A stretch of DNA of 64,000 nt from a virus, in the IMG/VR virus record IMGVR_UViG_3300020056_002227, positions 1-64,000 of that record. One strand, given 5' to 3'. Position 1 is the first letter of the stretch. Each line of letters begins with the position of its first letter. Under the pieces are notes generated by a model, which ran no database searches, was not told the origin of the DNA, and saw only the letters and a list, made by a program, of their open reading frames with translations. The position numbers were made by a program, and so were the translations under genes. Positions 3,600-39,146 of this stretch are shown piece after piece.

Positions 3600-3905
3600 T
3601 TATTCCTCTGGAAAGCCTTCTTGTACAAATACCCCAATCGTACCGATTTGACCATCAGTAAGATTCATGGCTTGTGGCCACATCATTTGAGATTGGGGGC
3701 CTACTATCTCACCGTTCTTATAGAGTGTGAGCTTGTTGATTATTTCATCAGCGGATTTATCGTAGAGTGTCGGACCAATTCCACCCTGTCCACGATCACC
3801 GTGACATGCAGAACATGCAACCCATGGTTGCCGAATATCATAGAATCTATCTGCGCTAGCCGGAAACGCAAAGAGAACGGATGCTAAAACAATTAAATAT
3901 TTCAT
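3600..3905 (-). CDS. Exported class I cytochrome c (c553-like)
   Basis: Signal peptide MKYLIVLASVLFAFPASA, CSACH heme motif, GQGGIGPTL, distal Met in SQMMW; GAGGT RBS before ATG 3905. Confidence 0.9.
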   Translation of the reverse strand: MKYLIVLASVLFAFPASADRFYDIRQPWVACSACHGDRGQGGIGPTLYDKSADEIINKLTLYKNGEIVGPQSQMMWPQAMNLTDGQIGTIGVFVQEGFPEE

Positions 3906-3916
3906 AGGGGATAACC

Positions 3917-4072
3917 TCATTTTGTGTCATAATAAATGCATGTATATGTATGACGACCTTCGGTCTCACTACATACCATGCAGCGCTTCTTTGGATCTTT
4001 GTAATCAAACTGTTTATGGTGTTTTTCTTCCCATACAGTTCGATCAGTTAATTTCTTTTCATCTTTAGTCAC
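3917..4072 (-). CDS. Small CxxC-H-C protein (51 aa)
   Basis: GTG start overlapping the glyA end; ...KRCMVCSETEGRHTYTCIYYDTK fills the gap between glyA and cytochrome c. Confidence 0.5.
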   Translation of the reverse strand: MTKDEKKLTDRTVWEEKHHKQFDYKDPKKRCMVCSETEGRHTYTCIYYDTK

Positions 4073-5210
4073 TTAAATACTGCACGATCTTTTTGGCCAA
4101 ATGTGCAAACCAAATCTCATCGTGCCCTCTAGTTGTCTCTGCGGCAGTGCCGATTCTTATACCAGATGTTTCCATGAATGGTCGTGGATCATTTGGTACA
4201 CCGTTCTTATTTACAGTAATTCCTCTGCTCTCGAGCTTATCTGCTGCCTCTCTACCAGAATATTTACTCTTACTCAAATCAAGCAATAGTATATGACTAT
4301 CGGTGCCATCAGTTAAAAGGTTAAATCCCCCATCTCTGAATACACCAGCCATTGCCTGGGCATTCTTAATAACTTGGGCTCCGTATTTTTCGAAGTCAAG
4401 GGTGGACGCCTCTACAAATGCTTGTGCTTTTGCAGCAATGATATTCATCAAAGGACCACCTTGTGTGCCAGGGAATACAGCACTATTGATTTTCTTTGTA
4501 TAATTCGAATCATTCCACAGGATGATTCCACCACGAGGTCCCCGCAGCGTTTTGTGTGTTGTCGAGGTCACAACATCAGCCCATTCAATTGGATTGTCGT
4601 AAACACCCGCTGCAATCAGACCAGAATAATGTGCCATATCTACCATCAATAGAGCACCTACTTGATCAGCAATGAATCTAAATGTCTCCCAATCAATCTG
4701 ACGAGGATAAGCAGAAGCACCGGCAATAATTAATCTTGGCCTATAGTTATATGCCAATTTCATGACTTCATCGTAATCAATATATCCGTTATGATCGACA
4801 CCATACGTTACAGCATCATAAATCTTACCAGACATATTGACCGGTGCACCATGGGAAAGGTGTCCACCAGACGCAAGGTCCATTCCTAGAATTCTGTCAC
4901 CAGGTCTCAGAAATGCTTGAAAGACAGCTGCATTTGCATTTGCACCAGAGTGAGGTTGAACATTGGCGTATTGACACCCATAAAGAGATTTGAGCTGTTC
5001 AATTGCGAAGGTCTCAATCTCATCCATATGATCACAGCCATTATAATAGCGACGACCAGGATATCCTTCTGCATATTTGTTTGTAAAGACAGAACCACAC
5101 AATGCCATTACTTCGTCACTTGCAAAATTCTCGCTTGCAATCAATTCTACTGTTGTCTGTTGGCGTTTCAGTTCTCTTTGCCAGATGCGGTCAATTTCAG
5201 GGTGCAACAA
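4065..5210 (-). CDS. glyA: Serine hydroxymethyltransferase
   Basis: ELIASENF, NKYAEGYPGRRYY, NVQPHSG, GGHLSHG, STTHKTLRGPRGG (PLP lysine), FPGTQGGP. Confidence 0.97.
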   Translation of the reverse strand: MLHPEIDRIWQRELKRQQTTVELIASENFASDEVMALCGSVFTNKYAEGYPGRRYYNGCDHMDEIETFAIEQLKSLYGCQYANVQPHSGANANAAVFQAFLRPGDRILGMDLASGGHLSHGAPVNMSGKIYDAVTYGVDHNGYIDYDEVMKLAYNYRPRLIIAGASAYPRQIDWETFRFIADQVGALLMVDMAHYSGLIAAGVYDNPIEWADVVTSTTHKTLRGPRGGIILWNDSNYTKKINSAVFPGTQGGPLMNIIAAKAQAFVEASTLDFEKYGAQVIKNAQAMAGVFRDGGFNLLTDGTDSHILLLDLSKSKYSGREAADKLESRGITVNKNGVPNDPRPFMETSGIRIGTAAETTRGHDEIWFAHLAKKIVQYLSD

Positions 5211-5224
5211 AATATTTTCTCCTA

Positions 5225-6523
5225 TTAGATTTTTTCGCCTGCTTCGAAGCCTCTAAATGTCTTGAATCTTGGAAACCGCAAAGAATACCCACCGTCTTGG
5301 TTTTGAGTAATCGCGTCACCTCTAACCTCTACCATATGACCAATAATAGAATCACGATTCTCCCAAAAATCATCCCTTTCGGCATCACTGAATCCACTGC
5401 CCACATTCACGCAGACCTGTCTACCGTCATCGATACCTTCACAGACGAGAGCACCAAGTCTCCCTTCATTTCTGCCAGTACCTTCCTCAACTTCTTTAAT
5501 TTCTAATGTGACCTCGATGAATGGCTTTGCCTTCAACCAAGCACGACCACGACTACATTCATAGGGTGCGTCAATATCTTTAATCATAACACCTTCATAG
5601 CCACCTTCTACTGCTGCTTTATTCAGAGCAACAAATCGATCTTGACCTTCGGTGGTATCTAAGTCCACAACTTCGTAGTCTAATGCTTCTACGTGTTTCA
5701 ATACATCTTTATTTTCATTTACCAATTTTTGTACGATGTCACTACGGAACGATTGGGGTTTATCCCAACCACCGGCCTGAAAATCTTCTAATGGTAGAAT
5801 ATCAAAAAGATGCAACACAGCATCGTCACTTTCTACGTTTTCTTTACGGTGTACCTGTTTCATTAAGTCTTGAAAATTTGCACTCATCACCTCGCCGTCC
5901 AAAACAAGAGGGTGGGGTGGTGGTTCATGTTTCCAAGCCTCACGAAGTTCATCACAAATGTGTTCAAAATTGTGAAATTGCTTACCGTTACGGCTAAACA
6001 TTTCGATCTTATCATCCTGAACAATTGTTATAACACGAACACCGTCAAGTTTGACTTCTATCTGCTTGACTCCAACCATTCGTTTTTCGTTCTTTGCACT
6101 ATCACTTGCAAGTGCACAGGTAAATCTTGGAACGGTTCCAGGTGCAACTTTATTTACAGTCTTTTCGCTTGCACCACATCGTAGATCCTTAATCAGAATT
6201 CGACGATACCAATCATTCCATTGTTCTTGTGTACTCTGTGCCATTGCAACAAGAATTGCATCTCGAGCCGCATGTCCGGTGAGAGACCTATCACTCAAAG
6301 AATTAGCCAAAGATAAGAAATCTTCCCAATCGAGGCCTTCGCCCGTAGGGTCTTTCTTTATCGGTACTTGCTTTACACCGAATGTAACCAAAGGATCTAG
6401 TGCCATTCTCAGGCCATCAAAAAACTCTGGATGACCTTCTTCATAAGCGGTACGAATAATATCCTCTTTATATAGACGGCTGTTGTCTAATTCCAATTGA
6501 CGAATGATGTGATCAGGTTGCAT
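5225..6523 (-). CDS. ATP-dependent DNA ligase (gp30-like)
   Basis: EVKLDGVR, LDGEV, GYEGVMIK, WLKAK, SLRFPRF. Confidence 0.95.
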   Translation of the reverse strand: MQPDHIIRQLELDNSRLYKEDIIRTAYEEGHPEFFDGLRMALDPLVTFGVKQVPIKKDPTGEGLDWEDFLSLANSLSDRSLTGHAARDAILVAMAQSTQEQWNDWYRRILIKDLRCGASEKTVNKVAPGTVPRFTCALASDSAKNEKRMVGVKQIEVKLDGVRVITIVQDDKIEMFSRNGKQFHNFEHICDELREAWKHEPPPHPLVLDGEVMSANFQDLMKQVHRKENVESDDAVLHLFDILPLEDFQAGGWDKPQSFRSDIVQKLVNENKDVLKHVEALDYEVVDLDTTEGQDRFVALNKAAVEGGYEGVMIKDIDAPYECSRGRAWLKAKPFIEVTLEIKEVEEGTGRNEGRLGALVCEGIDDGRQVCVNVGSGFSDAERDDFWENRDSIIGHMVEVRGDAITQNQDGGYSLRFPRFKTFRGFEAGEKI

Positions 6524-6773
6524 CAGCAAAACCAAACTCCTTCATAATATAATGACTTTGAACTTCTTTAAAAAAATCACGGTAATCACCGATATATTTA
6601 TCGTCCCACCAGATGTGTGGGATCTTTTGCATATCGACGTTTTCTGAACGAAGAAGACGATAGTTTTTCGAATATGTGATATCACGATATTCGTATTTTA
6701 AACCATACTTCTTAGCAAGGGCAACAGAGTCGTGGCAGAAACCACATTGAGGTGTACCATAAATTACTATCAT
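6513..6773 (-). CDS. Glutaredoxin
   Basis: IYGTPQCGFC, IPHIWW..YIG. Confidence 0.85.
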   Translation of the reverse strand: MIVIYGTPQCGFCHDSVALAKKYGLKYEYRDITYSKNYRLLRSENVDMQKIPHIWWDDKYIGDYRDFFKEVQSHYIMKEFGFADAT

Positions 6774-7108
6774 GGCTTCTTAGTTGAATCTTCCCATTCT
6801 CGTGCAAATTTGATTTTCTGCTCTTCCGACCATTCGACCAAATAATTATTATCTTCATCAAATGTCTCTAGCATCTGAGGCTCATCAATAATTGCTACAT
6901 CGATGATAGTTTCACCTAACCATTTTTGAGAGAACTCTTTGACCTCTTCGCAGGTTACAGAATCTTCCATCCACTGTTTTGCCAGTGTTTCATCAAGTTC
7001 TTTTTCTTCGTTCATGGCCTGTAAGGCCTCTGCGGGAATGAGATAGCGCTGTCTGAAAGAAGATACACAGGTTGCCAGTACGTATTTACCTTCAAGCTCT
7101 TTTTTCAT
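6770..7108 (-). CDS. Hypothetical protein
   Basis: 112 aa acidic ORF, GGAG RBS, own promoter. Confidence 0.75.
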   Translation of the reverse strand: MKKELEGKYVLATCVSSFRQRYLIPAEALQAMNEEKELDETLAKQWMEDSVTCEEVKEFSQKWLGETIIDVAIIDEPQMLETFDEDNNYLVEWSEEQKIKFAREWEDSTKKP

Positions 7109-7133
7109 AATATAGCTCCATGGTTAAAAAATC

Positions 7134-7162
7134 ATTATATCAGATAAAAAGTGTGTTGTCAA
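7134..7162 (-). promoter_or_regulatory. sigma70-type promoter
   Basis: TTGACA-N17-TATAAT with extended TG. Confidence 0.85.
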
Positions 7163-7169
7163 CACAAAT

Positions 7170-7307
7170 TTATAAAAACATTAATCCTATACAGAAACCA
7201 ATGTTTAAGCCTATAGAACACACCAGTACGAAATCTTTGGTAAAACTGGGTGGTTCAAACGTTATTATTTCCGGTTCTACTATTCTGTAGTCGCGTTTCC
7301 TTTTCAT
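7170..7307 (-). CDS. Small membrane protein
   Basis: MKRKRDYRIVEPE...FVLVCSIGLNIGFCIGLMFL; start uncertain. Confidence 0.5.
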   Translation of the reverse strand: MKRKRDYRIVEPEIITFEPPSFTKDFVLVCSIGLNIGFCIGLMFL

Positions 7308-7416
7308 TTGATTTAATAAGCACTCGTGTTCGTGGATCTGATCCAAAGTCTCGAGCATAGACGGTTTTACCTTTATCTGGGCTCTCGTAAATCTTTGGTA
7401 CGTTGTTGCCTTTCAT
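7255..7416 (-). CDS. Small conserved hypothetical protein
   Basis: GAGGAG RBS; IYESPDKGKTVYAR motif common in T4-like marine phages. Confidence 0.65.
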   Translation of the reverse strand: MKGNNVPKIYESPDKGKTVYARDFGSDPRTRVLIKSNEKETRLQNSRTGNNNV

Positions 7417-7429
7417 ATCAAACTCCTCA

Positions 7430-7672
7430 TCAAGTGTTTTTTGCATTATCAAGAATTTTACCCCATATGTATTCGGCCTCTGGAAATTCGACCATCTCAT
7501 CGACTTGCATATCAATATAGTCTAATTCGTCTAATGCAGCTGTCGTGACTTCGAGTTTCCACATATCATGGATTGCTCTTACAAATGCAGCATTATTGAA
7601 TGCCTGAGGCCCGAACTCTTTGAGAAAGTCCTCAAGCCGACTATATTCTTGTCTATCCTTTTTCTGGGGCAT
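7430..7672 (-). CDS. Hypothetical protein
   Basis: 80 aa ORF, AGGAG RBS. Confidence 0.65.
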   Translation of the reverse strand: MPQKKDRQEYSRLEDFLKEFGPQAFNNAAFVRAIHDMWKLEVTTAALDELDYIDMQVDEMVEFPEAEYIWGKILDNAKNT

Positions 7673-8102
7673 TTTTTATTTCTCCTTTCAACCAACCGAT
7701 ACGCTTACCGAGGTGTACTCGTCTGTCATATTCTTCTATAGAGCCTGGGTATCTCCAAGCCCAAACTAGCCAGAAGAGCATGAATAAACCAATGCTAACG
7801 GTAGCAATGGGTTTCAATTGGAGATAGAGAATCCAAACAAAACTAATCGTACAACATACAAGCATAACATACTTTGCTTTTGTTGGATAGACCCTCTTAT
7901 TCGTCCAATTCTGCACATATGGTCCAAAGGTTGGGTGTTCCCACACCCACTTTTCTAATCTAGGTGAACTCTTACTGAAACACCACAATGCTAGAAGAAG
8001 GAATGATGTTGTAGGAATGCCAGGTACAATTGCTCCGATGTAAGCCATACCTACTGATGCCAATCCCCCTGCTCTCCACAAATTTCTACGAATGTTCATC
8101 AA
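7653..8102 (-). CDS. YbaN (DUF454)-family inner-membrane protein
   Basis: [36 protein letters not shown] signature. Confidence 0.85.
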
Positions 8103-9285
8103 ATACTTTCCTCAATGCTGTTACCAAATCATGCATCATACCGTCATCATGTAATGGTGTTGGTGTTATTCTTAATCGTTCTGTACCCACATCTACCGTG
8201 GGATAATTAATTGGTTGAATGTATAAACTATATTTATCTAGTAGTTCATCGCTTATGACCTTACATTTTTTAGCATCACCGACCATGACTGGTACAATGT
8301 GAGTACAGGCTGCATCATGTACCATGAGACCAGCGTCAAGTATCATCTGCTTGAGTGTGGTTGCTCGCTCTTGATGTTTCTCCCTTAACTCATTATGATC
8401 TTTTAAGTAGCGTATTGATGCGATGGCTCCTGCACACACGACAGGTGATGTTGATGTGGTGAAGATGAAGCCGGATGCGATTGATCGAATTGCATCAAGA
8501 ACAATACTATCACCAGCAATGTAACCACCGTGACAACCAAACGCTTTTCCAAGTGTTCCATTGATTATATCTACCCTCTTTTCTCCTATTTTCTCACAGT
8601 ATCCTGCCCCGGTATTACCGTACAGTCCTACTGCGTGTACCTCATCGATATATGTAATTGCACCATATTTTTCTGCAAGATCACATATTTCTTTAATTGG
8701 GGCTACATCCCCGTCCATACTATAAACACTTTCAAATACAATACAAGGTGTTTGGCCATCCAGTTGAGATGTTTGTAGTGCCAATTCTAGTTCTGCCATA
8801 TCATTGTGTTGCCAAATCTGCTTCGAAGCACCACTGTGTCGAATGCCTTGAATCATACTAGCATGATTCTTCGAATCACTGAGATATATCAAATTTGGTA
8901 TGATTTGGGCTAGAGCTACCAGAGACCATTCATTTGCAACATATGCAGAAGTGAATAGAACAGCGCTCTCTTTCTGGTGTAAAAGCGCCAGCTCTTTCTC
9001 TAGTGTTACGTGGAAATGAGATGTGCCACCAATGTTTCGTGTACCACCCGATCCAGCACCTGTCTTATCAAGGGCTGTGTGCATCGCATCAATTACAAAT
9101 TGATTTTGACCCATATTGAGGTAATCATTCGAACACCAATTTACTATATTCTTAGGTGCGTATTTTCCGTACCATGTGGCTCTTGGAAATTCACCTCGTG
9201 TTCTTACGATGTCGTTGAAAATTCTATATTTACCTTGATCCTTTAGATCGGTAATTACCTTCTCAAACGCCGTCTTGTTTATCAT
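8086..9285 (-). CDS. hemA: 5-aminolevulinate synthase (Shemin/C4 pathway)
   Basis: [69 protein letters not shown]. Confidence 0.95.
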
Positions 9286-9643
9286 CAACCTTGTCCCAAA
9301 TATTATCGGCTGTGAACCGATATGCTCCAATACATTTGTATCGAGTCCAGTTGTCAATTAAACTCAAAAGATACTCGTTTTCTGTCTCATACAAATAATA
9401 TATATGGCCAACCTTTGGTACAAAATTATACCGAGCACGATAAACCATCTCAGTTTGTTGGGCCAACTCTACCAACTCTTCGTATTCACGATTTAGTTGA
9501 TTCAGTCTCTCTTCGAAATATTTACTAGCATTTAGACCACGTTCACTTCGAAAGAGGTCAGTGTCCGGTAATTGAATGGCCGGAGCACTGACATTCGACC
9601 CATAAGGTAAAAGACCTGGAGCACTAGGCAGCGTATGCTTCAT
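9263..9643 (-). CDS. DUF2452-like protein
   Basis: [13 protein letters not shown]...[16 protein letters not shown]; family name from memory. Confidence 0.7.
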
Positions 9644-10826
9644 CCCAGCTACCCGACAGACCTGCCACTTCATATTCAGTTACACGATTCTCAAAGAAGT
9701 TGGTATGGTCTGCTCCATTCAGAACCCATTCCAACCAGGGAAGTGGATTGTCTTTGACTCGGAAATTTGGTTTCATACCAAGTTGAATCAAACGACGGTC
9801 GGTAATATATCGAATATACTGCTTGACTTCTGATTTCTCGAGCCCCTCAATCTCACCCATCTTATATGCAAGATCGATGAACTTGTCTTCAAGCTTTACG
9901 ATCTGACGAGACATTTCATAAATCTCTGCCTTGAATTCATCGTCTACAATACGAGGATGTTCTTGGCAGAACACCTTAAACAGTTTGGAATTGCCTTCTA
10001 CATGCATGCTCTCATCACGAATCGACCATTCTACAACCTTACCCATGCCTTTCATCTTACCGAACCGTTGGAAATTCAACAGCATCACGAAAGATGCAAA
10101 GAGGGCAACACCTTCATTGAATACAGATTTGGCAAGTGCCTGACCGAGTCCTCTCATTGTATTTACGTCCGACTCCATCATGTATTCAATCTTGTCGGCC
10201 ATCTCTTTGTATTCAAGGAATGCGTGATATTCTTCAGCAGACAGACCAAGGGTCTCATTCAGTAGAGCATATGCACGTTGGTGAATACCTTCTCGTGCAG
10301 CAAAGGAAGATAGCATGTTACGGACTTCGTTGTTCTTAAACTTAGGAATGAACTGATCAAAATAATTCTGTCCTACAGCAACATCTGACTGAGTAAACAG
10401 TCTCAGGATATTCGTGATATATTCTTTTTCTACCGGAGTAATCTTGCCACCTTTCCAATCGGACACATCTTCAGATAGATCGAGCTCATCTTCAATCCAG
10501 TGTGCCTTCTCATGTCTAGTTGTGATATCGATTGCCCATGGATAATGAAAAGGCTTATAAGTTTCAGAGAATTCGAGTAGACCACCAGAAGACTTTTTAA
10601 TCAAGGTATCTGCGATTGCCATTAGATCATTATAGGTACCAATGTGCTTATCATCGATAAAGATTTGAGGTACGGATCTTACGTTTGGATACTTTTGGTA
10701 AAACGACATGCGTTGCTCTTCATCATCGAGTTTGATCTCGGTAAATGTATAATCATGCTGCCGGAACCATGCCTTTGCTTTTTCACAAAAAGGGCAGAAA
10801 GACTTAGAGTAAATTACTACTTGCAT
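9624..10826 (-). CDS. nrdB: Class Ia ribonucleotide reductase beta subunit with N-terminal glutaredoxin domain
   Basis: N-terminal CPFC..VPQIFI Grx domain; FTQSD, EGIHQRAY, EGVALFASF, RDESMH, NFFENRVTEY. Confidence 0.95.
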   Translation of the reverse strand: MQVVIYSKSFCPFCEKAKAWFRQHDYTFTEIKLDDEEQRMSFYQKYPNVRSVPQIFIDDKHIGTYNDLMAIADTLIKKSSGGLLEFSETYKPFHYPWAIDITTRHEKAHWIEDELDLSEDVSDWKGGKITPVEKEYITNILRLFTQSDVAVGQNYFDQFIPKFKNNEVRNMLSSFAAREGIHQRAYALLNETLGLSAEEYHAFLEYKEMADKIEYMMESDVNTMRGLGQALAKSVFNEGVALFASFVMLLNFQRFGKMKGMGKVVEWSIRDESMHVEGNSKLFKVFCQEHPRIVDDEFKAEIYEMSRQIVKLEDKFIDLAYKMGEIEGLEKSEVKQYIRYITDRRLIQLGMKPNFRVKDNPLPWLEWVLNGADHTNFFENRVTEYEVAGLSGSWDEAYAA

Positions 10827-10841
10827 TGGGGGATTTCCTCT

Positions 10842-11414
10842 TTATTGAGATAATTTAAAATTTGTTTGCGAATGGTGCTTTTCGTCCTGCTGGACTCTAT
10901 ACACCATGTCGTATAGTCTTGCATCGGGTTTCAGGTCATAATAATCAATTGCAAGTTTCGGTGCGGGTGTATTATCTATCTCGCCATGAGATATCATTTT
11001 CAAATAGCTCTCATAACTACGTACTGCTTCTTCTTCGAAATAATGTACCATGAGATGTGCCGTCTTAGGGAAGAAGATATAAAACACAAGATAATAATGC
11101 CAGAATATAAACTGAGCAACGAGAATCAATGCTCTTTCAAACCAATTCGGCTGTGCGATCTCAATGAAGAACATGAGATGCATTCTTTCGTTCTCGGCCT
11201 CTGCCAAGAGTTCTCGTATTTGTGGACCATATCCAGTCTTTAATTTTCTAAGACTGCGCAGATGAATCCACATGCCGGCAACCATACCAGGTACTCCGGC
11301 AATTGTTTCTAATACTACTGCTCTGTGACCATACCTCTTTGCGAAGAATGTATCAGCAAAGAATCGAAACATCTTTGTCTGACCATAGGCAAAGAAATGG
11401 CTTATCCTTGACAT
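10842..11414 (-). CDS. aox: Alternative oxidase (ubiquinol oxidase, di-iron)
   Basis: All four iron-binding motifs: LETIAGVPGMV, EAENERMHL, YFEEEA, QQDEKHH. Confidence 0.93.
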   Translation of the reverse strand: MSRISHFFAYGQTKMFRFFADTFFAKRYGHRAVVLETIAGVPGMVAGMWIHLRSLRKLKTGYGPQIRELLAEAENERMHLMFFIEIAQPNWFERALILVAQFIFWHYYLVFYIFFPKTAHLMVHYFEEEAVRSYESYLKMISHGEIDNTPAPKLAIDYYDLKPDARLYDMVYRVQQDEKHHSQTNFKLSQ

Positions 11415-13186
11415 GCAACGCACTCGTCTTGATTCTCTTCTTTACCGTTGGTAAAATTGACGGGTGCAACCAAAGAATCAAGTTTCTCTCTTTCCACCTT
11501 GGCAGATACGTTCTCAGCCTTATTAGATGTTTCGGTGCGAAGATAGTAGAGACCCTTACAACCCTGTTTCCAAGCCTCGAAATGAACCTTGTGTAGATAT
11601 GATTTAGGAGCACCAGCTGGAAAGAAAACATTCAGAGATTGACCTTGACACAGATGAGTCTGACGATCACCAGCAAGTTTAACCAACCACAACTGGTCGA
11701 GTTCAATTGCTGTCTTAAATACTTCTTTTACATGGTCAGAAAGAAAATCAAGATGTTGGACCGAACCACCAGATGTAATGATCGAAGACCAAATTTCATC
11801 TGTGTTCTTACCGAGACGTTCTAGTTCTTTCTCTAGGTAGGGGTTCTTATTCAGGTGAGATCCAACACGAGTACGAGAGGTGAACGCATTTGCTTTCCAA
11901 GGTTCGATGCTGGGAGATGTATCTACGATCATAGAAGAATTAGCATTGGGTGCAATTGCTAGCATGTGAGCATTCCGGCGACCAGTACCTTTCATATCTG
12001 GTGCTTCACCCTTCTTCTTACCCATATCCAGCGTGGCCTTAACGGCTCTTTCCTTTATCAAAGAGAAAATTTCTTCATTCTTTTCTATTGCTGCATCACT
12101 GCCAAAAGGAATCATGTGTTTTTGGAAATAAGAGTGCAGGCCCATTGCTCCAAGACCGAGAGATCTTTCACGTTCTGCACTATATCGAGCACGAGAAATT
12201 TCGTCTCCAGCATGATCGATAAAGAACTGTAATACATTATCGAGGTAGATAATTAGATCTTCAATCATGGTGGTATCTTTCCAGTCATCGTATTTTTCTA
12301 CATTCACGGATGACAGACAGCATACAGCAGTACGTTCTTCGTTGGTGACAAGATGAATTTCATTACACAAATTCGAACCACGAATTTTCAGGCCCATATC
12401 TTGTTGTGTTTGAGGAAGAGCACGATTTGCTGTATCAATGAAATTCAGATAAGGTTCACCTGTTCGATATCGAGTCTCCAATAGATGTTCCCACAATTTA
12501 CGAGCCTTCATGGTATCTCTTACTGTACCGTCATCTGGATCAATTAGATCCCAATCCGCACCAGACTGAACTGCCTCCATAAACTTATCGGTGATATTTA
12601 CGGCGTGATGTAGGTTCAAATTTTTACGATTTACATCTCCAGTAGGAATCCGCATATTCACGAACTCGATGATATCTGGATGATCACAGTCAATATACGC
12701 CGCATAAGAGCCCTTTCTTGTGCGTCCCTGGCGGTACGCTACCATATCCGCATCAACGGTATGTAAGAACGGCATCGGACCAGGAGCCTTTTTGGATACT
12801 GCTCTTACGTCAGACCAGTGGCCACCAACACCCCCACCTTTAACCGACAACCATCTCAGCTCTGCACTATGGTCGATCAACCCTTCTAGGGAATCGGGAA
12901 CATATGTCAAGAAACACGAGATAGGTAATGCCTTTACTGGTTCACCCTTAACAGGTGCATTAGAAAGGACTGGAGAGGCAAACATGAACCAACCCTTAGA
13001 AACATAATCATAGATTCGTTGCGCTAACTTCAAATCACCATAAGAATATGCCACTGCAGCCCTTGCAAATGCTTGCTGGGGACTCTTCTCATCTTCACGA
13101 CAATAATAATCCTTTAACAGTTTCGATGATTGCTCTGACAGTAACTTGTTTCTCTTGTTATCGATTTGGATTCCAAGGTGATCCAT
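11402..13186 (-). CDS. nrdA: Class Ia ribonucleotide reductase alpha subunit
   Basis: PISCF, GSNLCNEI, VCCLSS, IAPNANSS, KGLYYLR, C-terminal CVAC. Confidence 0.97.
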   Translation of the reverse strand: MDHLGIQIDNKRNKLLSEQSSKLLKDYYCREDEKSPQQAFARAAVAYSYGDLKLAQRIYDYVSKGWFMFASPVLSNAPVKGEPVKALPISCFLTYVPDSLEGLIDHSAELRWLSVKGGGVGGHWSDVRAVSKKAPGPMPFLHTVDADMVAYRQGRTRKGSYAAYIDCDHPDIIEFVNMRIPTGDVNRKNLNLHHAVNITDKFMEAVQSGADWDLIDPDDGTVRDTMKARKLWEHLLETRYRTGEPYLNFIDTANRALPQTQQDMGLKIRGSNLCNEIHLVTNEERTAVCCLSSVNVEKYDDWKDTTMIEDLIIYLDNVLQFFIDHAGDEISRARYSAERERSLGLGAMGLHSYFQKHMIPFGSDAAIEKNEEIFSLIKERAVKATLDMGKKKGEAPDMKGTGRRNAHMLAIAPNANSSMIVDTSPSIEPWKANAFTSRTRVGSHLNKNPYLEKELERLGKNTDEIWSSIITSGGSVQHLDFLSDHVKEVFKTAIELDQLWLVKLAGDRQTHLCQGQSLNVFFPAGAPKSYLHKVHFEAWKQGCKGLYYLRTETSNKAENVSAKVEREKLDSLVAPVNFTNGKEENQDECVACQG

Positions 13187-13195
13187 GATTGCTCC

Positions 13196-13864
13196 TTATT
13201 CGGTTACGTAATCTTTCGCAAGAGGAAAGATATGGTGAATTGCCGCGGCACAAGCACGCGCAAGTTCCATGTGTTCTTTTTGAGTACCATTTGCACTTCG
13301 GAGTTCAATATAGTGAATCCAAGAGCGAATGGTTCCATTGACATAAAGACGAGAGACAGTCAGTCCTTCAGGTAATACTGCCCGGGCTTGTTCTTTAGCG
13401 ATACCATTATCGATAGCCCATTTATATAGTTCTTTAACCTTGTGAATGAGTTCCATCTGTCTCATGTTCCATTTTTCATACAGTCGAGGATCATTAGTAG
13501 CAATAGAATTCTGTCGATTCTTGGGGTCTTGTAATCTTGCCTCTCTAGTTACAAATTCCAAATCTTCAGTGGGGTCTGCATAACGTTGACTGAATTCTTG
13601 GAAACTAAAACTACGATGCCTTATTAGCTGTCTTGCAATATCTCTTGTAGTTTCTACCTCGAGACACGCACTAGCCATTTCAAATGGCGACCAGTGTTTG
13701 TGTTTTGCAAGATACTTTAAAAGCTTTTCACTTGTTTCAGTATTGTATTGATTTGCAGGGTTACTGACTCGAGCACAGAAAGCAATCAAGTCTTGTATAT
13801 CGGATATCCCTTCAGAATCCATTAATCTAGTTGGTTGACTGTAACTAATCAACTTCACATTCAT
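13196..13864 (-). CDS. thyX: Flavin-dependent thymidylate synthase
   Basis: HWSPFE, RQLIRHRSFSFQEFSQRY, EQARAVLP. Confidence 0.97.
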   Translation of the reverse strand: MNVKLISYSQPTRLMDSEGISDIQDLIAFCARVSNPANQYNTETSEKLLKYLAKHKHWSPFEMASACLEVETTRDIARQLIRHRSFSFQEFSQRYADPTEDLEFVTREARLQDPKNRQNSIATNDPRLYEKWNMRQMELIHKVKELYKWAIDNGIAKEQARAVLPEGLTVSRLYVNGTIRSWIHYIELRSANGTQKEHMELARACAAAIHHIFPLAKDYVTE

Positions 13865-13867
13865 TAT

Positions 13868-14887
13868 CTAAGTCCTTTTCCATTGTTGTAGTTTGAGTTT
13901 TGCCTCAAGGCCAGAGTATATATTCGACCTAATAATACTTCCAACATCCGTGCATCCATTGAGTATCATTTCATTAATATCCTTGCCTGGTACATCATGT
14001 GGCCAAATACAAATTTTATATCCCTGTTCAATGACCTTTTCCATGCGTTTGTGGATTTCTTTATTACGAGGTTCTGCATCGAATACAAATACGGCTTTCT
14101 CTTTCGCATTTTTTAGAGCTGAAGTGTTTCCGTCCGCTCCGGCCATAGCCACGGCGTTACGTAAGAAAAAGCTATCGATAGCACCTTCAACCACGTAGTA
14201 CTGTCTACTAAAATCAACTGTGTCTAGGCCAAAGATCTTAGGTCGTTCATCAAACATAATTGTAAGATATCGGACCCCATTGGGATCAAAGCCTCGGGCA
14301 GATACACCGAAGACATTTTTGTCTTCATCGAAAAATGGTATCACCAATCGTGGTTCGTCTCTATCTACGTTTTCGAATTTATTTGGGATGATTGAGTTAA
14401 TCCATCCTTTGAACTTGTTTACGTAATAGAGTCTGTAGTGCTGATTCGGAGGAATCTGCCTCTGGTTTATATATCTTTTGACTGGATGATTCCATTGGAG
14501 TTGACTGATTTTTTTGATGGTTTTTAGTGGATTATTTTTCTTGTTGAATTTTGGCTTTGCAGTCTTGAATTTATCATCTGGAGTAGTCGAGATTGAGTTG
14601 TTAGCTTTCTTGATGAACTTCTCAGCCACATAATCGTTATACATCATAGGGTCTTGGCCCTTAAGGAAGAACGAGAATGATTGACTTGCACCACAATTGT
14701 GGCAGTAATAAAGAAGGCTGTTATCTTTCTCTAGAAGCCAACCTCGGGCCTTAGACCGAGATTTTTGAGAGTCGCCGCAGATAGGGCAACGGAAATTGAT
14801 CTTATAGGGATTGGTAGATCGAATCTTAAAGTTTTCCAACCGACCCGACAATAGTTGGGCGTATTGGATATCAACGAAATCAAGCAT
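13868..14887 (-). CDS. DNA primase (gp61)
   Basis: RCPICGDS..K.RG..YCHNCG Zn finger, EGAIDS TOPRIM, KDINEM. Confidence 0.95.
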   Translation of the reverse strand: MLDFVDIQYAQLLSGRLENFKIRSTNPYKINFRCPICGDSQKSRSKARGWLLEKDNSLLYYCHNCGASQSFSFFLKGQDPMMYNDYVAEKFIKKANNSISTTPDDKFKTAKPKFNKKNNPLKTIKKISQLQWNHPVKRYINQRQIPPNQHYRLYYVNKFKGWINSIIPNKFENVDRDEPRLVIPFFDEDKNVFGVSARGFDPNGVRYLTIMFDERPKIFGLDTVDFSRQYYVVEGAIDSFFLRNAVAMAGADGNTSALKNAKEKAVFVFDAEPRNKEIHKRMEKVIEQGYKICIWPHDVPGKDINEMILNGCTDVGSIIRSNIYSGLEAKLKLQQWKRT

Positions 14888-14922
14888 AATAAAGGGCCTA
14901 ATAGGGTTTAGTCTATAAGGTT

Positions 14923-14951
14923 ATTTTATCATGTTTGTTGGGGAATGTCAA
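14923..14951 (-). promoter_or_regulatory. sigma70-type promoter for the primase-thyX-nrd block
   Basis: TTGACA-N17-TAAAAT with extended TG. Confidence 0.8.
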
Positions 14952-15433
14952 CCTATAATTGAAACAAAATGTTCAAGACCCAAAAATGCAACGGCACCAC
15001 CCAAACCCATGAGGTAATACTTCCAATGCTCAAGTGATCGGAGCCGAGAACCGTGATCATCTAGTTTAGAAGAGAGCTCTATGGATAGTGCCTCTACCTT
15101 TTCTAAGATAGCTTCATCGTGCTTGAGTCTTTGCTTTGCATTATGTTCTGCAAGCTGTTTGTGGTCTCTACGAGAGGATTCTCTATACTCTTCTAGCTTC
15201 TTAGACATTTCTACGACACGGGCTTCATCTTCTTTACGATGTGTCTCAATTCTTTCTTCGAGGTCGTCGAGCTTCTCGGTTGCAATCTTAAGGACCTCTT
15301 CCTGTACAGCAGTCATTTTGGAAACGTCAATTAGTTTCTCCATGCTGCCTTCTACTTTGGAAAAGAAATTCTCAATTTGCTTGATATCTTTCTTAATAAG
15401 GGCAATATCAGTTTTTAAGTCTGATTCAGCCAC
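14948..15433 (-). CDS. Coiled-coil protein with C-terminal TM helix
   Basis: GAGGAG RBS, GTG start; heptads then RLRSLEHWKYYLMGLGGAVAFL. Confidence 0.75.
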   Translation of the reverse strand: MAESDLKTDIALIKKDIKQIENFFSKVEGSMEKLIDVSKMTAVQEEVLKIATEKLDDLEERIETHRKEDEARVVEMSKKLEEYRESSRRDHKQLAEHNAKQRLKHDEAILEKVEALSIELSSKLDDHGSRLRSLEHWKYYLMGLGGAVAFLGLEHFVSIIG

Positions 15434-15512
15434 CTTAAACTCCTCTTAGTTCAGTACCAAAATCATTTTGGTAACCTAGCTATTTATTTTGGAGTAAAAC
15501 TGAATATTCTTA

Positions 15513-15541
15513 ATTATAATACATTTAAGAGAAAATGTCAA
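15513..15541 (-). promoter_or_regulatory. sigma70-type promoter
   Basis: TTGACA-N17-TATAAT. Confidence 0.8.
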
Positions 15542-15549
15542 CAATTTTT

Positions 15550-16293
15550 CTAACCGTGTGCACTGGGTCGATTAGCAAAGTATATCATGAATTCTCTGGG
15601 AAGTGGGTTACCATATTGCTTGTTTATGATAAGATCGTCATTCCAGATAGACTGTTTGATGTGATGATTTTGAAATCTGACCTTACCTTCATCCCAATAA
15701 GGTTTGAAAAACTCATTACGGAACTTCATAAAATCTTCAGCACCAGTATCTGAGTGAGCACGATGAATCTCTAGTGCTATGAAGCTCACATTTTTCTGTA
15801 TCCACTCAAGATTTTCTTTTGTCAGTATGTCGTATTCTCCACCTTCGCAGTCAATCTTCAGAAAATCGATGTGTTCAATTTCATAATACTCAATGAATTC
15901 TTTGAATGTGAGTTTCTGAAAGTCTTCAGCATCTTGGGGTTGATAAATGTGATTTATGTGTTCTTTATTGTTCATGATAGCAGCATGAACAGGAACGACA
16001 GGTGATTGCTTTGCATTGATCACGTAATCGTCGACGTTTTTCATTGCCGTTCGTAACAGTGAACGATTGGGTTCAATCGAATAAACCTTGCTTGCACCAA
16101 GATCAAGAGCGTGCGCAGTAAACATTCCTATACAAGCTCCAACATCAACTACAACATCACCCGGCCGAACTTTATCCCACCAGTCGTAGTCCATAGAGTG
16201 AAAAAATTCATGGCGCATATTTGAAATATGATCCAGGCCAATATTACCTGTATCCATATTCTTATTGAGTGCCTTTCGATTTACGTGGGTCAT
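15550..16293 (-). CDS. FkbM-family methyltransferase
   Basis: VVDVGACIGMF, YSIEPN, FLKIDCEGGEY. Confidence 0.9.
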   Translation of the reverse strand: MTHVNRKALNKNMDTGNIGLDHISNMRHEFFHSMDYDWWDKVRPGDVVVDVGACIGMFTAHALDLGASKVYSIEPNRSLLRTAMKNVDDYVINAKQSPVVPVHAAIMNNKEHINHIYQPQDAEDFQKLTFKEFIEYYEIEHIDFLKIDCEGGEYDILTKENLEWIQKNVSFIALEIHRAHSDTGAEDFMKFRNEFFKPYWDEGKVRFQNHHIKQSIWNDDLIINKQYGNPLPREFMIYFANRPSAHG

Positions 16294-16311
16294 AATAAAA
16301 AGTTTCCTATA

Positions 16312-16467
16312 TTATTCTTTCTTTTCTTCATCAGGGGGAGGCGGGAGACATATTTCACCTCTAGCATTGCCCCAACCATCAGTGGGTAATCTACCACTTA
16401 TATTCACATCAAAACAGGGGGTGGACGCGCATCCAGTGAGGAATACGAGAAGAATACAATATTTCAT
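16312..16467 (-). CDS. Small lipoprotein (51 aa)
   Basis: MKYCILLVFLTGC lipobox; ATGA overlap with the o-spanin stop. Confidence 0.65.
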   Translation of the reverse strand: MKYCILLVFLTGCASTPCFDVNISGRLPTDGWGNARGEICLPPPPDEEKKE

Positions 16468-17024
16468 TTCTCTTCTTTGGCCGCAGCCTCTTCCTCTTTC
16501 GGCTTCTTGGTAGTCACCTCTTTATAATAGACAATGACTTCTCCCAATTCACGAATATATCGTCTGAGTTCTTGCACATTACCAGACATTAATTCATAAT
16601 CTTTTACCGTAGAGGCTACAAAAAGAATATCACCACCAGTGGCGACCTTGATATCATCGATGAATTTATCTAGGTAGGTGTATCCTTCTGGCTGATTTGG
16701 ATTTTCTTTCTCTTCCTGAGAGCAGGCCTTCGGTCTTCTCAGTTGAGGTTCACCATCATCCTTGAGCAGAGGCTCTCCGTTATCATCCAGACGAGGAACC
16801 TGTTTACAAGGGTTGGGGACAAACGCCTCAGAAACGACGTACCACGTTGGGCTTTGGAGGTTGATGGGTCGGGGCATCGTGGGTTGGATGATTTCAATCT
16901 CCACTGGTTTGCTTACAACTTGTATTACCTTTTCTGGTTCAGCACCAAAACCCCATTTACCAAGTATCGAACAACCACTAATTAGACTGGCTGTCGTTAA
17001 GAGCAGCAATACCCTTGCTATCAT
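16464..17024 (-). CDS. Outer-membrane spanin-like lipoprotein
   Basis: LISGC lipobox, Pro-rich, C-terminal DYELMSGNVQELRRYI; overlaps the i-spanin end. Confidence 0.7.
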   Translation of the reverse strand: MIARVLLLLTTASLISGCSILGKWGFGAEPEKVIQVVSKPVEIEIIQPTMPRPINLQSPTWYVVSEAFVPNPCKQVPRLDDNGEPLLKDDGEPQLRRPKACSQEEKENPNQPEGYTYLDKFIDDIKVATGGDILFVASTVKDYELMSGNVQELRRYIRELGEVIVYYKEVTTKKPKEEEAAAKEEK

Positions 17025-17379
17025 TCTCAATCTCCTCAAAAATCTTCTTAGTGCCGTTATTCATACGATTCGCAACCAATCCAGGTTTCATCAATGCCAG
17101 TTTATCAAGATTATGGCGTTGAAAGATAGCCATATAACGGTCTTTCTCTGCATTGATTTCTGAATTACGTTGCTGTAGATTGGTAAGGGCAGCTGCCTGT
17201 TGCTCGAAAGATTCTTTCATTGCAGTCATTGCAGCCTGCTGTTCTTCTATTGCCCCTTCGAGTTTCGATACATTGCCTTTTAGAATGGCGTTATTTGCTT
17301 CTAGGATTTGGTTCTGTTGATAAAACCAACCAGCGGCTCCACCCAAAGCAATTATAATTACAAAGAAAATTTGATACAT
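16978..17379 (-). CDS. Inner-membrane spanin-like protein
   Basis: N-terminal TM plus long coiled coil; KPGLVANRMNNGTK. Confidence 0.75.
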   Translation of the reverse strand: MYQIFFVIIIALGGAAGWFYQQNQILEANNAILKGNVSKLEGAIEEQQAAMTAMKESFEQQAAALTNLQQRNSEINAEKDRYMAIFQRHNLDKLALMKPGLVANRMNNGTKKIFEEIENDSKGIAALNDSQSN

Positions 17380-17681
17380 TATTCTTCCTCAATACGGTAA
17401 TTCAGGCCAGCATTTGCCTTAAAATTAACAGCCTTTTTGTCAGCCGTGATAAAATTAAGTTCTTTCCATGTTTGTTTGGTGATTACTGGAACATTCTCAT
17501 ACACGACATCATCTGAATTGCCAAATTTAGAATCATAAGATACAGTGATCTTATAGGTGGGCTTAGTTGTCCACCACTTCCAAACCCAGCCAATCGCTTT
17601 GAACGGGGCAGTAACGATAGTTACAAACCCCGTCCAAATGGCCTTAAAGGCCTGTATTACCTTTTGCTTCAAATTAGACAT
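17379..17681 (-). CDS. Hypothetical protein
   Basis: 100 aa, TAATG-coupled to the i-spanin. Confidence 0.7.
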   Translation of the reverse strand: MSNLKQKVIQAFKAIWTGFVTIVTAPFKAIGWVWKWWTTKPTYKITVSYDSKFGNSDDVVYENVPVITKQTWKELNFITADKKAVNFKANAGLNYRIEEE

Positions 17682-17695
17682 AACGATAAGATGAA

Positions 17696-17944
17696 TTACT
17701 TCTTAGACTTTTTAGACTCTTCTTTCTCGTCTTCGTCTTCGTCGTCATCAGACTCGTCTTCGGCTTCAGCCTCTTCCTCGTCCTCATCTTCCTCTTCTTC
17801 ATCTTCCATTTCTTTCTTCATCTTCGCCTTGTACTTCTCTTCAAGAGCAGCAGCAATACGAGTAGCAACTTCCTCTTCGAAAGCCTCTTTCATTTGAACT
17901 GGATTCTCATTGAGAGCCTCAGAAACAATCTTCTTAACTGACAT
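17696..17944 (-). CDS. Acidic prohead core/internal protein (gp67-like)
   Basis: Late promoter upstream; D/E tract; AGGAG RBS. Confidence 0.6.
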   Translation of the reverse strand: MSVKKIVSEALNENPVQMKEAFEEEVATRIAAALEEKYKAKMKKEMEDEEEEDEDEEEAEAEDESDDDEDEDEKEESKKSKK

Positions 17945-36966: not shown

Positions 36967-36969
36967 TTT

Positions 36970-37373: not shown

Positions 37374-37784
37374 TTAGCTAGATGGGCATGCAGCTCCATC
37401 TGATGAGGCATCGTATTTCTCGTCACCACAACCATACTTGTTATCGTTGTTAGTATCGCATCCTCGTTGCCAATATTGCATTGTGAAAGTATAACCTTCG
37501 CTCCACGGTGTGTATGCTTTACACCACTCGTGAGTACCGAACGCTTCACCGTCAGTGCCATTATCTGGTGGCACGTAATCTACTTTTTCGGTTGGTACGA
37601 TTTTTTCATATCGCATCGTTTTACCGTTATTGTAGACTGAACGTCTCCACAACTCAGATCGCTTCGAAACGAAAACATATTCGTCTTCAGCAACCGTATA
37701 TACATCACCATTATCGTATGTAATGGTATGCGCCAATGCACTCGTCGAAACAAGTGCCATGATAACTAGCAAAAATTGCTTCAT
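37374..37784 (-). CDS. Secreted 4-Cys protein downstream of the bilin reductase
   Basis: AAGGAG RBS; MKQFLLVIMALVSTSALA signal peptide; aromatic-rich mature part. Confidence 0.75.
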   Translation of the reverse strand: MKQFLLVIMALVSTSALAHTITYDNGDVYTVAEDEYVFVSKRSELWRRSVYNNGKTMRYEKIVPTEKVDYVPPDNGTDGEAFGTHEWCKAYTPWSEGYTFTMQYWQRGCDTNNDNKYGCGDEKYDASSDGAACPSS

Positions 37785-37853
37785 TTTAGATCTCCTTAAG
37801 TTAGTAGCTGCTACGGCATGCACCCCCTCGGGATGCATGAATAGAAACTTCAT

Positions 37854-38597
37854 TTAAGGATTGGGATTGTAAAAAGTGCCTTGATCAACTGGATATAGCT
37901 TTACCTCTTCGAATAAAACGTCTTCTACATACTGCTTAATTTCTTCTTCACCCAATTTCATGGCCTTCAAAGAATTCCAGAGCTGTTGGTTCTTCTTTTG
38001 ATTGATACAGTATCTATTGTGACTTTCCATACGATCCTCGCCCAACCAAAATTGTTGGTGTTCAATCTGTTCAAGATAATAATGGATCAATCTTATTGCA
38101 GTATCACAAAACTGCTCTGTCTCTTCACCCTCACGAACGTTTCCTGCTGCAACCATATGTGGAGAGAAAATTTCTTTTGCCCATTCAGGCAATTCCCTTT
38201 CTGTTTTCCACTCCAAGTCTCTGGTCGCAAGACCAAATGTAGTAATGATGGGGTGTGTTTCGTCGGATACTGGAGAGAAATCGAAAAATGAACCGCTGAT
38301 CTTATTAGGTCCGGCCACAACATCCAATCCCAAGATCGGATAATGGAATGATGTGCCGGGAAAGATATTAATGTGCATCAACCAAAGTTTTGGTTTACCC
38401 TCAATAGGCTCAATGATTTTCAAGTGTGCCTTACGAACGGGGCCAGATTGCCAAAACAGATCTGTCCAACCTTCGAATTCGTGTATGTGTTTTTCATTAT
38501 CAAAGCGCTCCATGTGCTTATCAAATATCTCAATGATATCAGTAGACAGTTTGCGCAAACGATTCAGTAGGGGTGTGTCCATAATATATTCAGCCAT
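37854..38597 (-). CDS. Ferredoxin-dependent bilin reductase (PcyA/PcyX type)
   Basis: RKAHL, LWLMHINIFP, PILGLDVVAG, FFDFSP, RELPEWA.EIFS, YC.NQKKN. Confidence 0.9.
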   Translation of the reverse strand: MAEYIMDTPLLNRLRKLSTDIIEIFDKHMERFDNEKHIHEFEGWTDLFWQSGPVRKAHLKIIEPIEGKPKLWLMHINIFPGTSFHYPILGLDVVAGPNKISGSFFDFSPVSDETHPIITTFGLATRDLEWKTERELPEWAKEIFSPHMVAAGNVREGEETEQFCDTAIRLIHYYLEQIEHQQFWLGEDRMESHNRYCINQKKNQQLWNSLKAMKLGEEEIKQYVEDVLFEEVKLYPVDQGTFYNPNP

Positions 38598-38600
38598 TAA

Positions 38601-39146
38601 TTACTCGTTATTAAATAGTGTGTCCAATTCTTCAAACAGTTTTGTTGCGTATTGAAAACAAATAATTGCTTCATCTACCATACCATCATAAAGCAATTCA
38701 CGAATGCCAGAGATTAACTCTCTCCTGTTTTCAAATTCGTACATGGTACCAGAACCAGGTACCCTCTTCTTAATTATCTGGCCACCGTGCATATCACCGA
38801 AGTGTCGTACATAAAGGTGTGCTAGGAGGTCGTCATTGTCCTCTAGTGAAAGGATATGGTCGATATATTCATCTACGGATCTGAGGTTTTCAGTGATCCA
38901 TGGTAGATTATACTCTTCTTCTAGTTCACATAAATCTGATAATATCTTATCTGCACGGAATACACCACGAAGATCCTGTGCCAGGTGAACTCTTTCTTCA
39001 AGGGTTTGATATATCTCATACTGCGACTTTAAATAGTATTGATACTCGACCGGAGAGATATCACCACTTATTAGTTTGCCAGCAAATTTGGATTGCTCTG
39101 CCATATCGTGGTGTTTTTGAGTTAATTCTTTTAGACTAGATGCCAT
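38601..39146 (-). CDS. Heme oxygenase
   Basis: LKELT..HH..AE (proximal His), LLAHLYVRHFGDMHGGQII, EA..CF; GAGGAG RBS. Confidence 0.93.
   Translation of the reverse strand: MASSLKELTQKHHDMAEQSKFAGKLISGDISPVEYQYYLKSQYEIYQTLEERVHLAQDLRGVFRADKILSDLCELEEEYNLPWITENLRSVDEYIDHILSLEDNDDLLAHLYVRHFGDMHGGQIIKKRVPGSGTMYEFENRRELISGIRELLYDGMVDEAIICFQYATKLFEELDTLFNNE

Follow-up and report, generated by a model that had tools for sequence, protein, structure and literature searches.

Genes of heme synthesis and heme degradation have been reported before from aquatic phages. Wegner et al. (2024, Nat Commun 15:8783, PMC11480375) described viral 5-aminolevulinate synthase (ALAS) genes on pelagimyophage-like contigs, which occur alone, as part of a three-gene cassette that also holds hemO and pcyA/X, or as a 'broken cassette'. 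[quoted passage not shown] The phycocyanobilin-forming activity of a freshwater reductase was attributed to its missing Asp55, and the presence of the heme-degrading genes was called 'enigmatic'. The two-gene hemO-pcyX cassette of marine phages, with PcyX_EBK42635 (PDB 5OWG), is credited to Ledermann et al. (2016, 2018). Table S5 of Zaragoza-Solas et al. (2020, mSystems, PMC7029224) gives 'Cytochrome C', 'Alternative oxidase AOX', 'Heme oxygenase', and 'Ferrochelatase' as auxiliary metabolic genes of pelagimyophages. Here, we analyzed the first 64 kb (the window) of a single 169,742-bp virus record, IMGVR_UViG_3300020056_002227 (G000), from an uncultured salt-marsh T4-like phage. [quoted passage not shown] On balance, this phage probably carries three separately inherited gene sets, including a tetrapyrrole-to-bilin set with a candidate acceptor of its own.

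The locus resembles the published valaS, vhemO, and vpcyA/X set in several respects. In both, a single aquatic T4-like phage of the pelagimyophage-like kind encodes ALAS, HO, and a PcyX-type FDBR. The HO and FDBR genes adjoin each other, with ALAS at another site, an arrangement that PMC11480375 terms a 'broken cassette'; in G000, the distance is 29 kb. As in the published vAlaS, the ALAS of the window has no heme-regulatory motif. The two sets also differ. DUF454/YbaN, AOX, SHMT, and a phage cytochrome c gene are unmentioned in the text and 11 supplementary files of PMC11480375, where 'cytochrome c' refers to the host oxidase, and the FDBR of G000 has Lys at the position of PcyX Asp55. PMC7029224 gives only a list, with no linkage analysis; AOX and cytochrome c are undiscussed in its main text, and ALAS and SHMT are unmentioned in its supplements. 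An earlier note on this DNA had stated that viral ALAS and hemO/pcyX genes were known from aquatic phages, which agrees with PMC11480375, and had known of no description of the full combination. That novelty holds only in part: ALAS with HO and PcyX is already published (PMC11480375), and AOX and cytochrome c are already listed (PMC7029224). The link of DUF454 to ALAS and FDBR, the Lys-variant reductase, and a possible virion bilin acceptor were not found in the literature, with PMC7029224 not searched for DUF454 or YbaN. New in the present data are the association of DUF454 with FDBR in phages without ALAS, an independent jumbo phage (G040), and a split of the repeat-bearing records by psbA. 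The genes of the tetrapyrrole set and the candidate acceptor are as follows, with profile scores judged against curated cut-offs.

8086..9285, minus strand: valaS, 5-aminolevulinate synthase, 399 aa from the ATG at 9285 (TIGR01821, 565.8 bits, cut-off 338.55)
7653..8102, minus strand: predicted small membrane protein of the DUF454/YbaN family, 149 aa (PF04304, 111.2 bits, cut-off 35.1, model positions 1-114 of 115)
38601..39146, minus strand: heme oxygenase, 181 aa, ATG at 39146 after AGGAG (PF01126, 69.7 bits, cut-off 23)
37854..38597, minus strand: PcyX-type ferredoxin-dependent bilin reductase, 247 aa (PF05996, 67 bits)
37374..37853, minus strand: conserved open reading frame (ORF), 159 aa, abutting the FDBR stop; no Pfam or PHROG match; hydrophobic N-terminal segment 26-46
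G000:C1:100610-110098 (L322:611-10099), beyond the window: tail-module protein of 3162 aa containing 11 phycobiliprotein-like repeats, flanked by tail-fibre and baseplate genes

The distribution of these genes was analyzed by searching every family in 30 long records (60-274 kb, plus Pelagibacter phage Mosig and Phage C48C1), and the matrix was extended to 58 records. As the earlier note had supposed for this part of its list, ALAS, DUF454, HO, and FDBR co-occur across separate phage lineages. FDBR was present in 10 of 11 DUF454-positive records vs 4 of 47 DUF454-negative ones (p = 2e-7; p = 5e-5 with the DUF454-positives collapsed to five lineages). The sole DUF454-positive record without FDBR, G023, also has no HO and no gp32, so the HO-FDBR slot lies off that fragment. 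Three more phage lineages have DUF454 without any ALAS, and FDBR was present in every one. Thus, the link of DUF454 to the bilin branch is no looser than its link to ALAS. The neighbours of DUF454 in the ALAS-less phages, which match glycosyltransferase, kinase, and CobS-like families, were not decisive. Two such loci (L128 and L132) contain CobS-like AAA+ genes (AAA_5 and CbbQ_C) 3-5 kb from DUF454, with HO-FDBR 8 kb off in L132; these surroundings may be another tetrapyrrole-related neighbourhood.

The ALAS assignment is clear in comparison with the paralogue models, since BioF (309 bits) and Kbl (306 bits) each scored under their own cut-offs. In the long ORF, the PLP lysine motif GTLGKAFG stands at residue 270. 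A Cys-Pro dipeptide is absent, which is a viral trait. The enzyme shares 69-84% sequence identity with IMG/VR phage ALAS and 53-55% with alphaproteobacterial ALAS. The DUF454 gene overlaps the ALAS stop by 17 nt, and its product has three to four hydrophobic segments. It scored 66.7 in the E. coli YbaN equivalog model NF007818 (cut-off 163); therefore, it is a family member rather than a YbaN orthologue. ALAS was identified on 12 IMG/VR contigs by exact peptide words, and DUF454 on 22 contigs in an IMG/VR scan of close relatives, which also supplied the contig counts given below for HO, AOX, cytochrome c, and glyA. Among the 42 nrdB-anchored relatives with enough flank, 31 carry ALAS. ALAS comes directly after nrdB, and DUF454 follows ALAS in these loci. 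The two genes overlap (-7 to -13 nt) or are 0.8-2.6 kb apart, in which case AOX or one to three small genes separate them. Fisher's test of ALAS against DUF454 in the nrdB-anchored loci gave p = 8e-8, which was rejected as evidence: ORF6770 and glutaredoxin co-vary with ALAS equally, so within the window's lineage the ALAS-DUF454 link is synteny only.

Distant phage ALAS loci, whose DUF454 is only 40-50% identical and whose nrdB is of another type, keep DUF454 directly downstream of ALAS (L008-L010, L308-L310, L312, L313, and L315). In four true bacterial ALAS loci, no DUF454 was found within 6 kb of ALAS, and none was found anywhere in the three native-ALAS genomes behind three of them (G034-G036). 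The pairing is thus a trait of phages. Contigs with phage nrd genes and a phage-type ALAS-DUF454 pair also occur in metagenome-assembled genomes (L308-L313, L320, and L321) assigned to Saprospiraceae, Vibrio, Polynucleobacter, Neomarinimicrobiota, Flavobacteriales, and Melainabacteria. These are probably mis-binned phage DNA, which would mislead host and taxonomy inference for ALAS. A separate case is the 96-kb contig L314 of Neisseriaceae bacterium PsAf, an apparently cellular genome that contains a phage-like ALAS (63% identity) and no DUF454.

The HO contains visible KHH and GDMHGGQ motifs, which we take, from human HO-1, to represent the proximal His and, on the distal helix, the GDxxGGQ sequence. 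The gene was found on 21 contigs. FDBR was the next gene after HO in 21 of 21 loci, followed by gp59 and gp32 wherever the contig reaches. The FDBR is closest to PcyX (5OWG, 141.9 bits, E 2e-40), while PcyA gave at most 55 bits. With residues counted on the alignment, its LWLMH and LGLDVVAG segments align with PcyX His69 and Asp86, and the gene lies directly after HO, as in the PcyX_EBK42635 cassette. The difference is at PcyX Asp55 (equivalent to PcyA Glu76), where the PcyX-specific Asp is replaced by Lys. The replacement is fixed across the window's sub-clade: AHLK(I/T)IEP is kept in 20 related FDBR loci, down to 45% identity, with the canonical AHLD in L033 only and a PcyA-like Glu in L132. 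Because Lys replaces Asp55, the bilin product is not predictable, and a four-electron reduction to phycoerythrobilin should not be assumed. From its sequence, the enzyme is classified as PcyX-type, not as PcyX. L017-L019 and L034 carry the 159-aa ORF at 92% identity, likewise downstream of FDBR. HO, FDBR, and this ORF abut, and thus resemble one late transcription unit, of which the ORF may be the third gene. Beside them, a class 3 lipase gene (39277-40074, plus strand) is conserved in 13 of the 21 HO loci. HO and FDBR genes of T4-like phages are also represented by ho1, pcyA, and pebS of the cyanophages; G000 differs in having no psbA. Since psbA was not found in G000, a cyanobacterium that has phycobilisomes of its own is improbable as the host.

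The most likely consumer of a phage bilin would be the 3162-aa tail-module protein, judging from the residues of its repeats. The repeats are about 140-160 aa each. Within the motif K-C-x-R-D-x-G-Y, K-C-x-R-D is invariant in all 11 repeats and G-Y is near-invariant. The motif aligns with the Cys84 site KCVRDVGYY of phycocyanin alpha, including the Cys-Arg-Asp residues. In a search of the repeat profile against PDB, phycocyanin alpha chains were 8 of 10 matches, at E values of only 0.08-1. PF00502 gave 20.2 bits, under the cut-off of 22.2, and no single stretch passed. A confident AlphaFold model of one repeat (pLDDT 88, pTM 0.84) was searched with Foldseek, which ranked phycocyanins first, weakly (E 0.05, not reaching 0.001). 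The protein differs from known phycobiliproteins (PF00502) in that the domains are arranged in tandem in a giant tail-module protein rather than as free alpha and beta subunits, its Pfam score is under the cut-off, and no lyase gene was identified. The phage proteins named in the study of bilin-binding globins (BBAGs; Rockwell et al. 2023, PMC10151467) are PcyX and cyanophage PcyA only.

IMG/VR was surveyed for the repeat domain with a degenerate DNA motif. All 80 of the fetched loci hold 1-22 repeats in giant ORFs. Some repeat-bearing records are psbA-carrying cyanophages (G039, G042, and G044) of bilin-making hosts. Among the psbA-negative records at least 70% complete, FDBR was present in 5 of 5 repeat-bearing records (G000, G001, G003, G004, and G040) vs 2 of 9 without repeats (p = 0.02, in a small, non-independent sample). 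The most telling record is the jumbo phage G040, 364 kb long and complete by CheckV, which was retrieved through the repeat motif alone. Its HO and FDBR genes are adjacent, DUF454 is at a distance of 12 kb, and ALAS another 28 kb on; it has neither AOX nor SHMT.

Promoter motifs bear on the timing of these genes. The sites are:

39234..39241, minus strand: TATAAATA, a late promoter motif of the T4 type, 88 nt upstream of the HO gene
39240-39247, plus strand: mirrored, overlapping TATAAATA copy, 30 nt before the class 3 lipase gene
7134..7162, minus strand: perfect sigma70-type promoter TTGACA-17-TGnTATAAT, with 12 of 12 hexamer matches and an extended TG; the only perfect site

The window contains 8 copies of TATAAATA, where 4.0 would be expected, and 4 of 100 shuffles reach 8. 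At least four copies are 30-90 nt upstream of a start codon, as read off the ORF list, and none was found in positions 1-17975. The genes from thyX through DUF454 overlap or abut. The sigma70 site (7162-7134) precedes a run of ORF6770, glutaredoxin, ligase, glyA, and cytochrome c, and the number of sigma70-like matches overall was at the shuffle level (30 vs 29.4). The earlier note had placed the synthesis genes behind sigma70 promoters and the degradation genes behind a late promoter. This split is partly confirmed at the level of motifs: HO is preceded by a late motif, which is missing from the nrd/ALAS/glyA/cytochrome block, and sigma70-like sites overall are no commoner than in shuffled DNA. 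By these motifs alone, a supply of ALA early on and the making of bilin later, alongside the structural proteins, would fit the pigment reading described below.

Why phages of heterotrophs carry HO and a bilin reductase is an open question, to which G000 offers a concrete and testable answer. ALAS and DUF454, transcribed with the nrd genes, would raise the level of 5-aminolevulinate. The host enzymes would then make heme, as is suggested by the lack of any later heme-pathway gene in the phage. Late in infection, HO would cleave heme into biliverdin, Fe, and CO, after which the PcyX-type reductase would reduce biliverdin to a bilin whose identity is not predictable. The bilin might be consumed by the 3162-aa tail-module protein at its Cys-Arg-Asp sites. 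This answer is based on the candidate virion bilin acceptor, the late-type promoter of HO-FDBR, and the tracking of the reductase by DUF454 across lineages. It is tentatively possible that phages of non-photosynthetic hosts run their own pigment pathway in this way, and that a bilin on a giant tail-fibre/baseplate protein gives a chromophore-bearing, light-absorbing or light-sensing virion. If true, such a pathway would explain the heme-degrading genes beside a heme-building gene.

Several observations weigh against a bilin set with its own acceptor. The repeat domain was found on at least 120 viral contigs, far more than the number of HO loci from the close-relative scan. Two half-complete psbA-negative records (G037 and G038) have repeats without FDBR, and the HO and FDBR of Pelagibacter phage Mosig are accompanied by neither DUF454 nor ALAS nor repeats. 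No Fer2 ferredoxin that could serve HO and FDBR was found in the phage genome. The records were gathered through anchor genes, so the sample is biased and not phylogenetically independent. In the window's own lineage, moreover, ALAS co-varies as strongly with the unrelated ORF6770 and glutaredoxin as with DUF454.

According to the published view, vAlaS maintains host heme for respiration and B12 enzymes, HO and PcyX mainly free iron, or detoxify heme, where water is poor in iron, and the bilin is a by-product for which the phage has no acceptor. Heme maintenance and iron salvage are discussed in PMC11480375. The phage encodes di-iron NrdB and AOX and a heme client, cytochrome c, which agrees with this view, as does Mosig, which has HO, FDBR, and ferrochelatase and no phycobiliprotein-like repeats. 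However, iron release needs only HO. The view leaves unexplained why FDBR follows HO in every locus and is conserved, why FDBR is associated with the repeat protein and with DUF454, and why the pair is under late-promoter control. It is considered rather unlikely.

Another explanation is that there is no functional linkage. The genes would be independent auxiliary genes that one phage lineage gathered in its hyperplastic regions, and the ALAS-DUF454 and DUF454-FDBR associations would result from shared ancestry and biased sampling. The equal co-variation in the nrdB-anchored loci and the collection of records through anchor genes agree with it, and in other lineages DUF454 is 12-28 kb from FDBR or ALAS. 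However, the ALAS-DUF454 adjacency survives at 40-50% DUF454 identity beside a different nrdB type. All five DUF454 lineages have FDBR, in contrast to the few among the other records. G040, which was found by a fifth, unrelated marker, has the whole set. Unlinked genes are thus an unlikely explanation, and a tetrapyrrole-to-bilin set, inherited separately from the other genes of the window, is preferred.

Two further gene sets are found in the window. The respiratory set consists of two genes:

3600..3920, minus strand: predicted exported class I c-type cytochrome, 106 aa (PF00034, 22.5 bits, barely over the cut-off of 21.3)
10842..11414, minus strand: alternative oxidase, 190 aa, between nrdA and nrdB (PF01786, 215 bits)

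The cytochrome c has a hydrophobic leader (segment 3-21), CSACH at residue 36, and Met79/80/85. Its PDB matches are class I c552, c553, and c554 (best E 2.9e-8). All four di-iron motifs (LET, NERMH, FEEEA, and DEKHH) are present in the AOX, and its top PDB matches are mitochondrial AOX (E 2e-32; 3VV9, E 4e-32). The match to the PTOX PHROG was only E 7.6e-4. Like the cyanophage PTOX, it is a phage-borne di-iron quinol oxidase; it differs in being of the AOX type. From these motifs and matches, the oxidase is assigned as a true AOX of the mitochondrial/proteobacterial type, rather than a cyanophage PTOX. AOX was identified on at least 214 viral contigs, and its position is fluid among the relatives: in the nrdA/nrdB gap as in G000, directly after ALAS, or elsewhere. 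A same-strand homologue of the window's cytochrome c was found in 24 of 80 AOX-anchored loci (within 1.5 kb in 22 of 80), in at least three arrangements, with the cytochrome 21-24 nt upstream, about 200 nt downstream, or about 950 nt upstream. The cytochrome c was found on 21 contigs. AOX is carried by 10 of the 21 cytochrome-anchored loci, and only 2 of 31 ALAS loci have the cytochrome. Cytochrome c therefore associates with AOX, not with ALAS, and AOX pairs with cytochrome c rather than with HO. The cytochrome c would be periplasmic, and the AOX a quinol oxidase at the cytoplasmic face. As judged from their families, the AOX and the exported cytochrome c would act on the host quinol/cytochrome chain. 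They are taken as two branches of host respiration propped up by the phage, although the manner of their cooperation is not evident.

The nucleotide set comprises the following genes, with one small ORF among them:

13196..13864, minus strand: ThyX, flavin-dependent thymidylate synthase, directly preceding nrdA (PF02511, 145 bits)
11402..13186, minus strand: NrdA (PF02867, 366 bits)
9624..10826, minus strand: NrdB with an N-terminal glutaredoxin domain (PF00268, 240 bits; PF00462, 62 bits)
9263..9673, minus strand: small conserved ORF with a DUF2452 match, between nrdB and ALAS (PF10504, 31 bits, cut-off 25)
6513..6773, minus strand: free glutaredoxin, the second beside the NrdB-fused one (PF00462, 39 bits)
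5225..6535, minus strand: ATP-dependent DNA ligase (PF01068 and PF14743)
4065..5210, minus strand: glyA, serine hydroxymethyltransferase, 381 aa (PF00464, 485 bits; NF000586, 559 bits, cut-off 335)

The order in G000 is ThyX, nrdA, AOX, and the glutaredoxin-NrdB fusion; after the ALAS insert, glutaredoxin, DNA ligase, and glyA follow. The DUF2452 ORF is kept at 73-89% identity in seven related loci and is missing from most ALAS-carrying relatives. The SHMT contains the PLP-site lysine motif TTHKT. Methylene-tetrahydrofolate, which ThyX needs, is a product of SHMT. Most simply, glyA feeds ThyX as part of the ordinary dTMP supply: SHMT would supply methylene-tetrahydrofolate, with glycine only a by-product. 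The gene was found on 73 viral contigs, mostly without ALAS, and its commonness in phages without ALAS is explained by the need of ThyX for this cofactor. A related phage record, G022 (the one behind L224), has a decaying glyA copy: several stop codons split its SHMT gene (G022:C1:88909-90002) into pieces.

The earlier note had joined all seven genes in a single programme, in which SHMT provides glycine to ALAS, heme supplies cytochrome c, late HO strips heme and releases CO, AOX sustains quinol oxidation, and the freed Fe serves NrdB and AOX. The co-occurrence survey that it proposed was run. All seven genes were found together only in G000 and its closest relative, G006, among the records surveyed. 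AOX-positive records lack ALAS, DUF454, HO, and FDBR in 11 of 13 cases, which does not agree with an AOX that belongs to the same programme. Nor is there support for AOX compensating for HO, as 6 of 8 HO-positive records have no AOX (p = 0.41, Fisher). The supply of ALAS by SHMT fares no better: tetrapyrrole genes are missing altogether from 8 of the 12 records with glyA, and glyA is grouped with thyX, nrdAB, and glutaredoxin. The gene distribution thus gives no support to the chain from SHMT to ALAS or from HO to AOX. The coexistence of the seven genes in two records, an AOX gene immediately between ALAS and DUF454 in 9 of the 42 nrdB-anchored loci that extend at least 5 kb downstream, glyA in 4 of 4 ALAS-positive records of the window's lineage, and the promoter split at the motif level agree with a single programme, but it is very unlikely, since G040 has ALAS, HO, and FDBR without AOX or glyA, cytochrome c goes with AOX, and the close relative L002 has its AOX deleted to a 19-residue remnant in an otherwise syntenic region with the rest intact. 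AOX with cytochrome c, and glyA, are other sets that assort independently of the tetrapyrrole genes. A phage's long list of plausible-looking metabolic genes should not be taken for a single pathway.

The T4-like assignment in the earlier note is supported by profile matches to gp32, gp59, UvsX, and a gp41-type helicase at 32-36.4 kb. All seven families that it named are also intact, as judged by profile searches and catalytic motifs, and lie at the coordinates that it gave. G000 has a GC content of 40.6%, five tRNAs, and a CheckV completeness of 77%; no terminal repeat was found in it. A chimeric assembly had been named as a condition that would overturn the combination. The gene order and spacing of the window are reproduced on an independent 72-kb IMG/VR contig (IMGVR_UViG_3300020347_000003). 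A seawater metagenome run, unrelated to the salt-marsh source, has contigs over 3400-13900 at 95-100% identity, with short gaps between contigs. Since the identical gene order occurs in independent metagenomes, the contig is not chimeric.

No cultured phage close to G000 was found, and its UvsX is less than 60% identical to that of any GenBank phage. The only DNA-level match to a cultured phage is nrdB, at 76% to Methylophilales phage Melnitz; blastn with the HO-FDBR DNA gave no match. In tblastn searches against GenBank phages, no true phage homologue of ALAS, DUF454, or cytochrome c was identified, the matches being host DNA in poor assemblies. AOX was found in Phage C48C1 only, and the top FDBR match was Mosig, at 35%. 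No further heme-related families were found among the ORFs at 13.8-32 kb, and no ferrochelatase or ThyA in the G000 genome. In metatranscriptome contigs, nrdA, nrdB, AOX, ligase, glyA, ALAS, and the cytochrome region are represented by scattered pieces of 150-400 nt at a depth of 1-4; these might be DNA carry-over, contigs give no ranking of genes, and they were not used for expression or timing. Finally, staphylococcal-nuclease-like genes are found near the ALAS/cytochrome block, both in the window (2969-3457, minus strand) and in a distant ALAS phage (L008:9505-9984).

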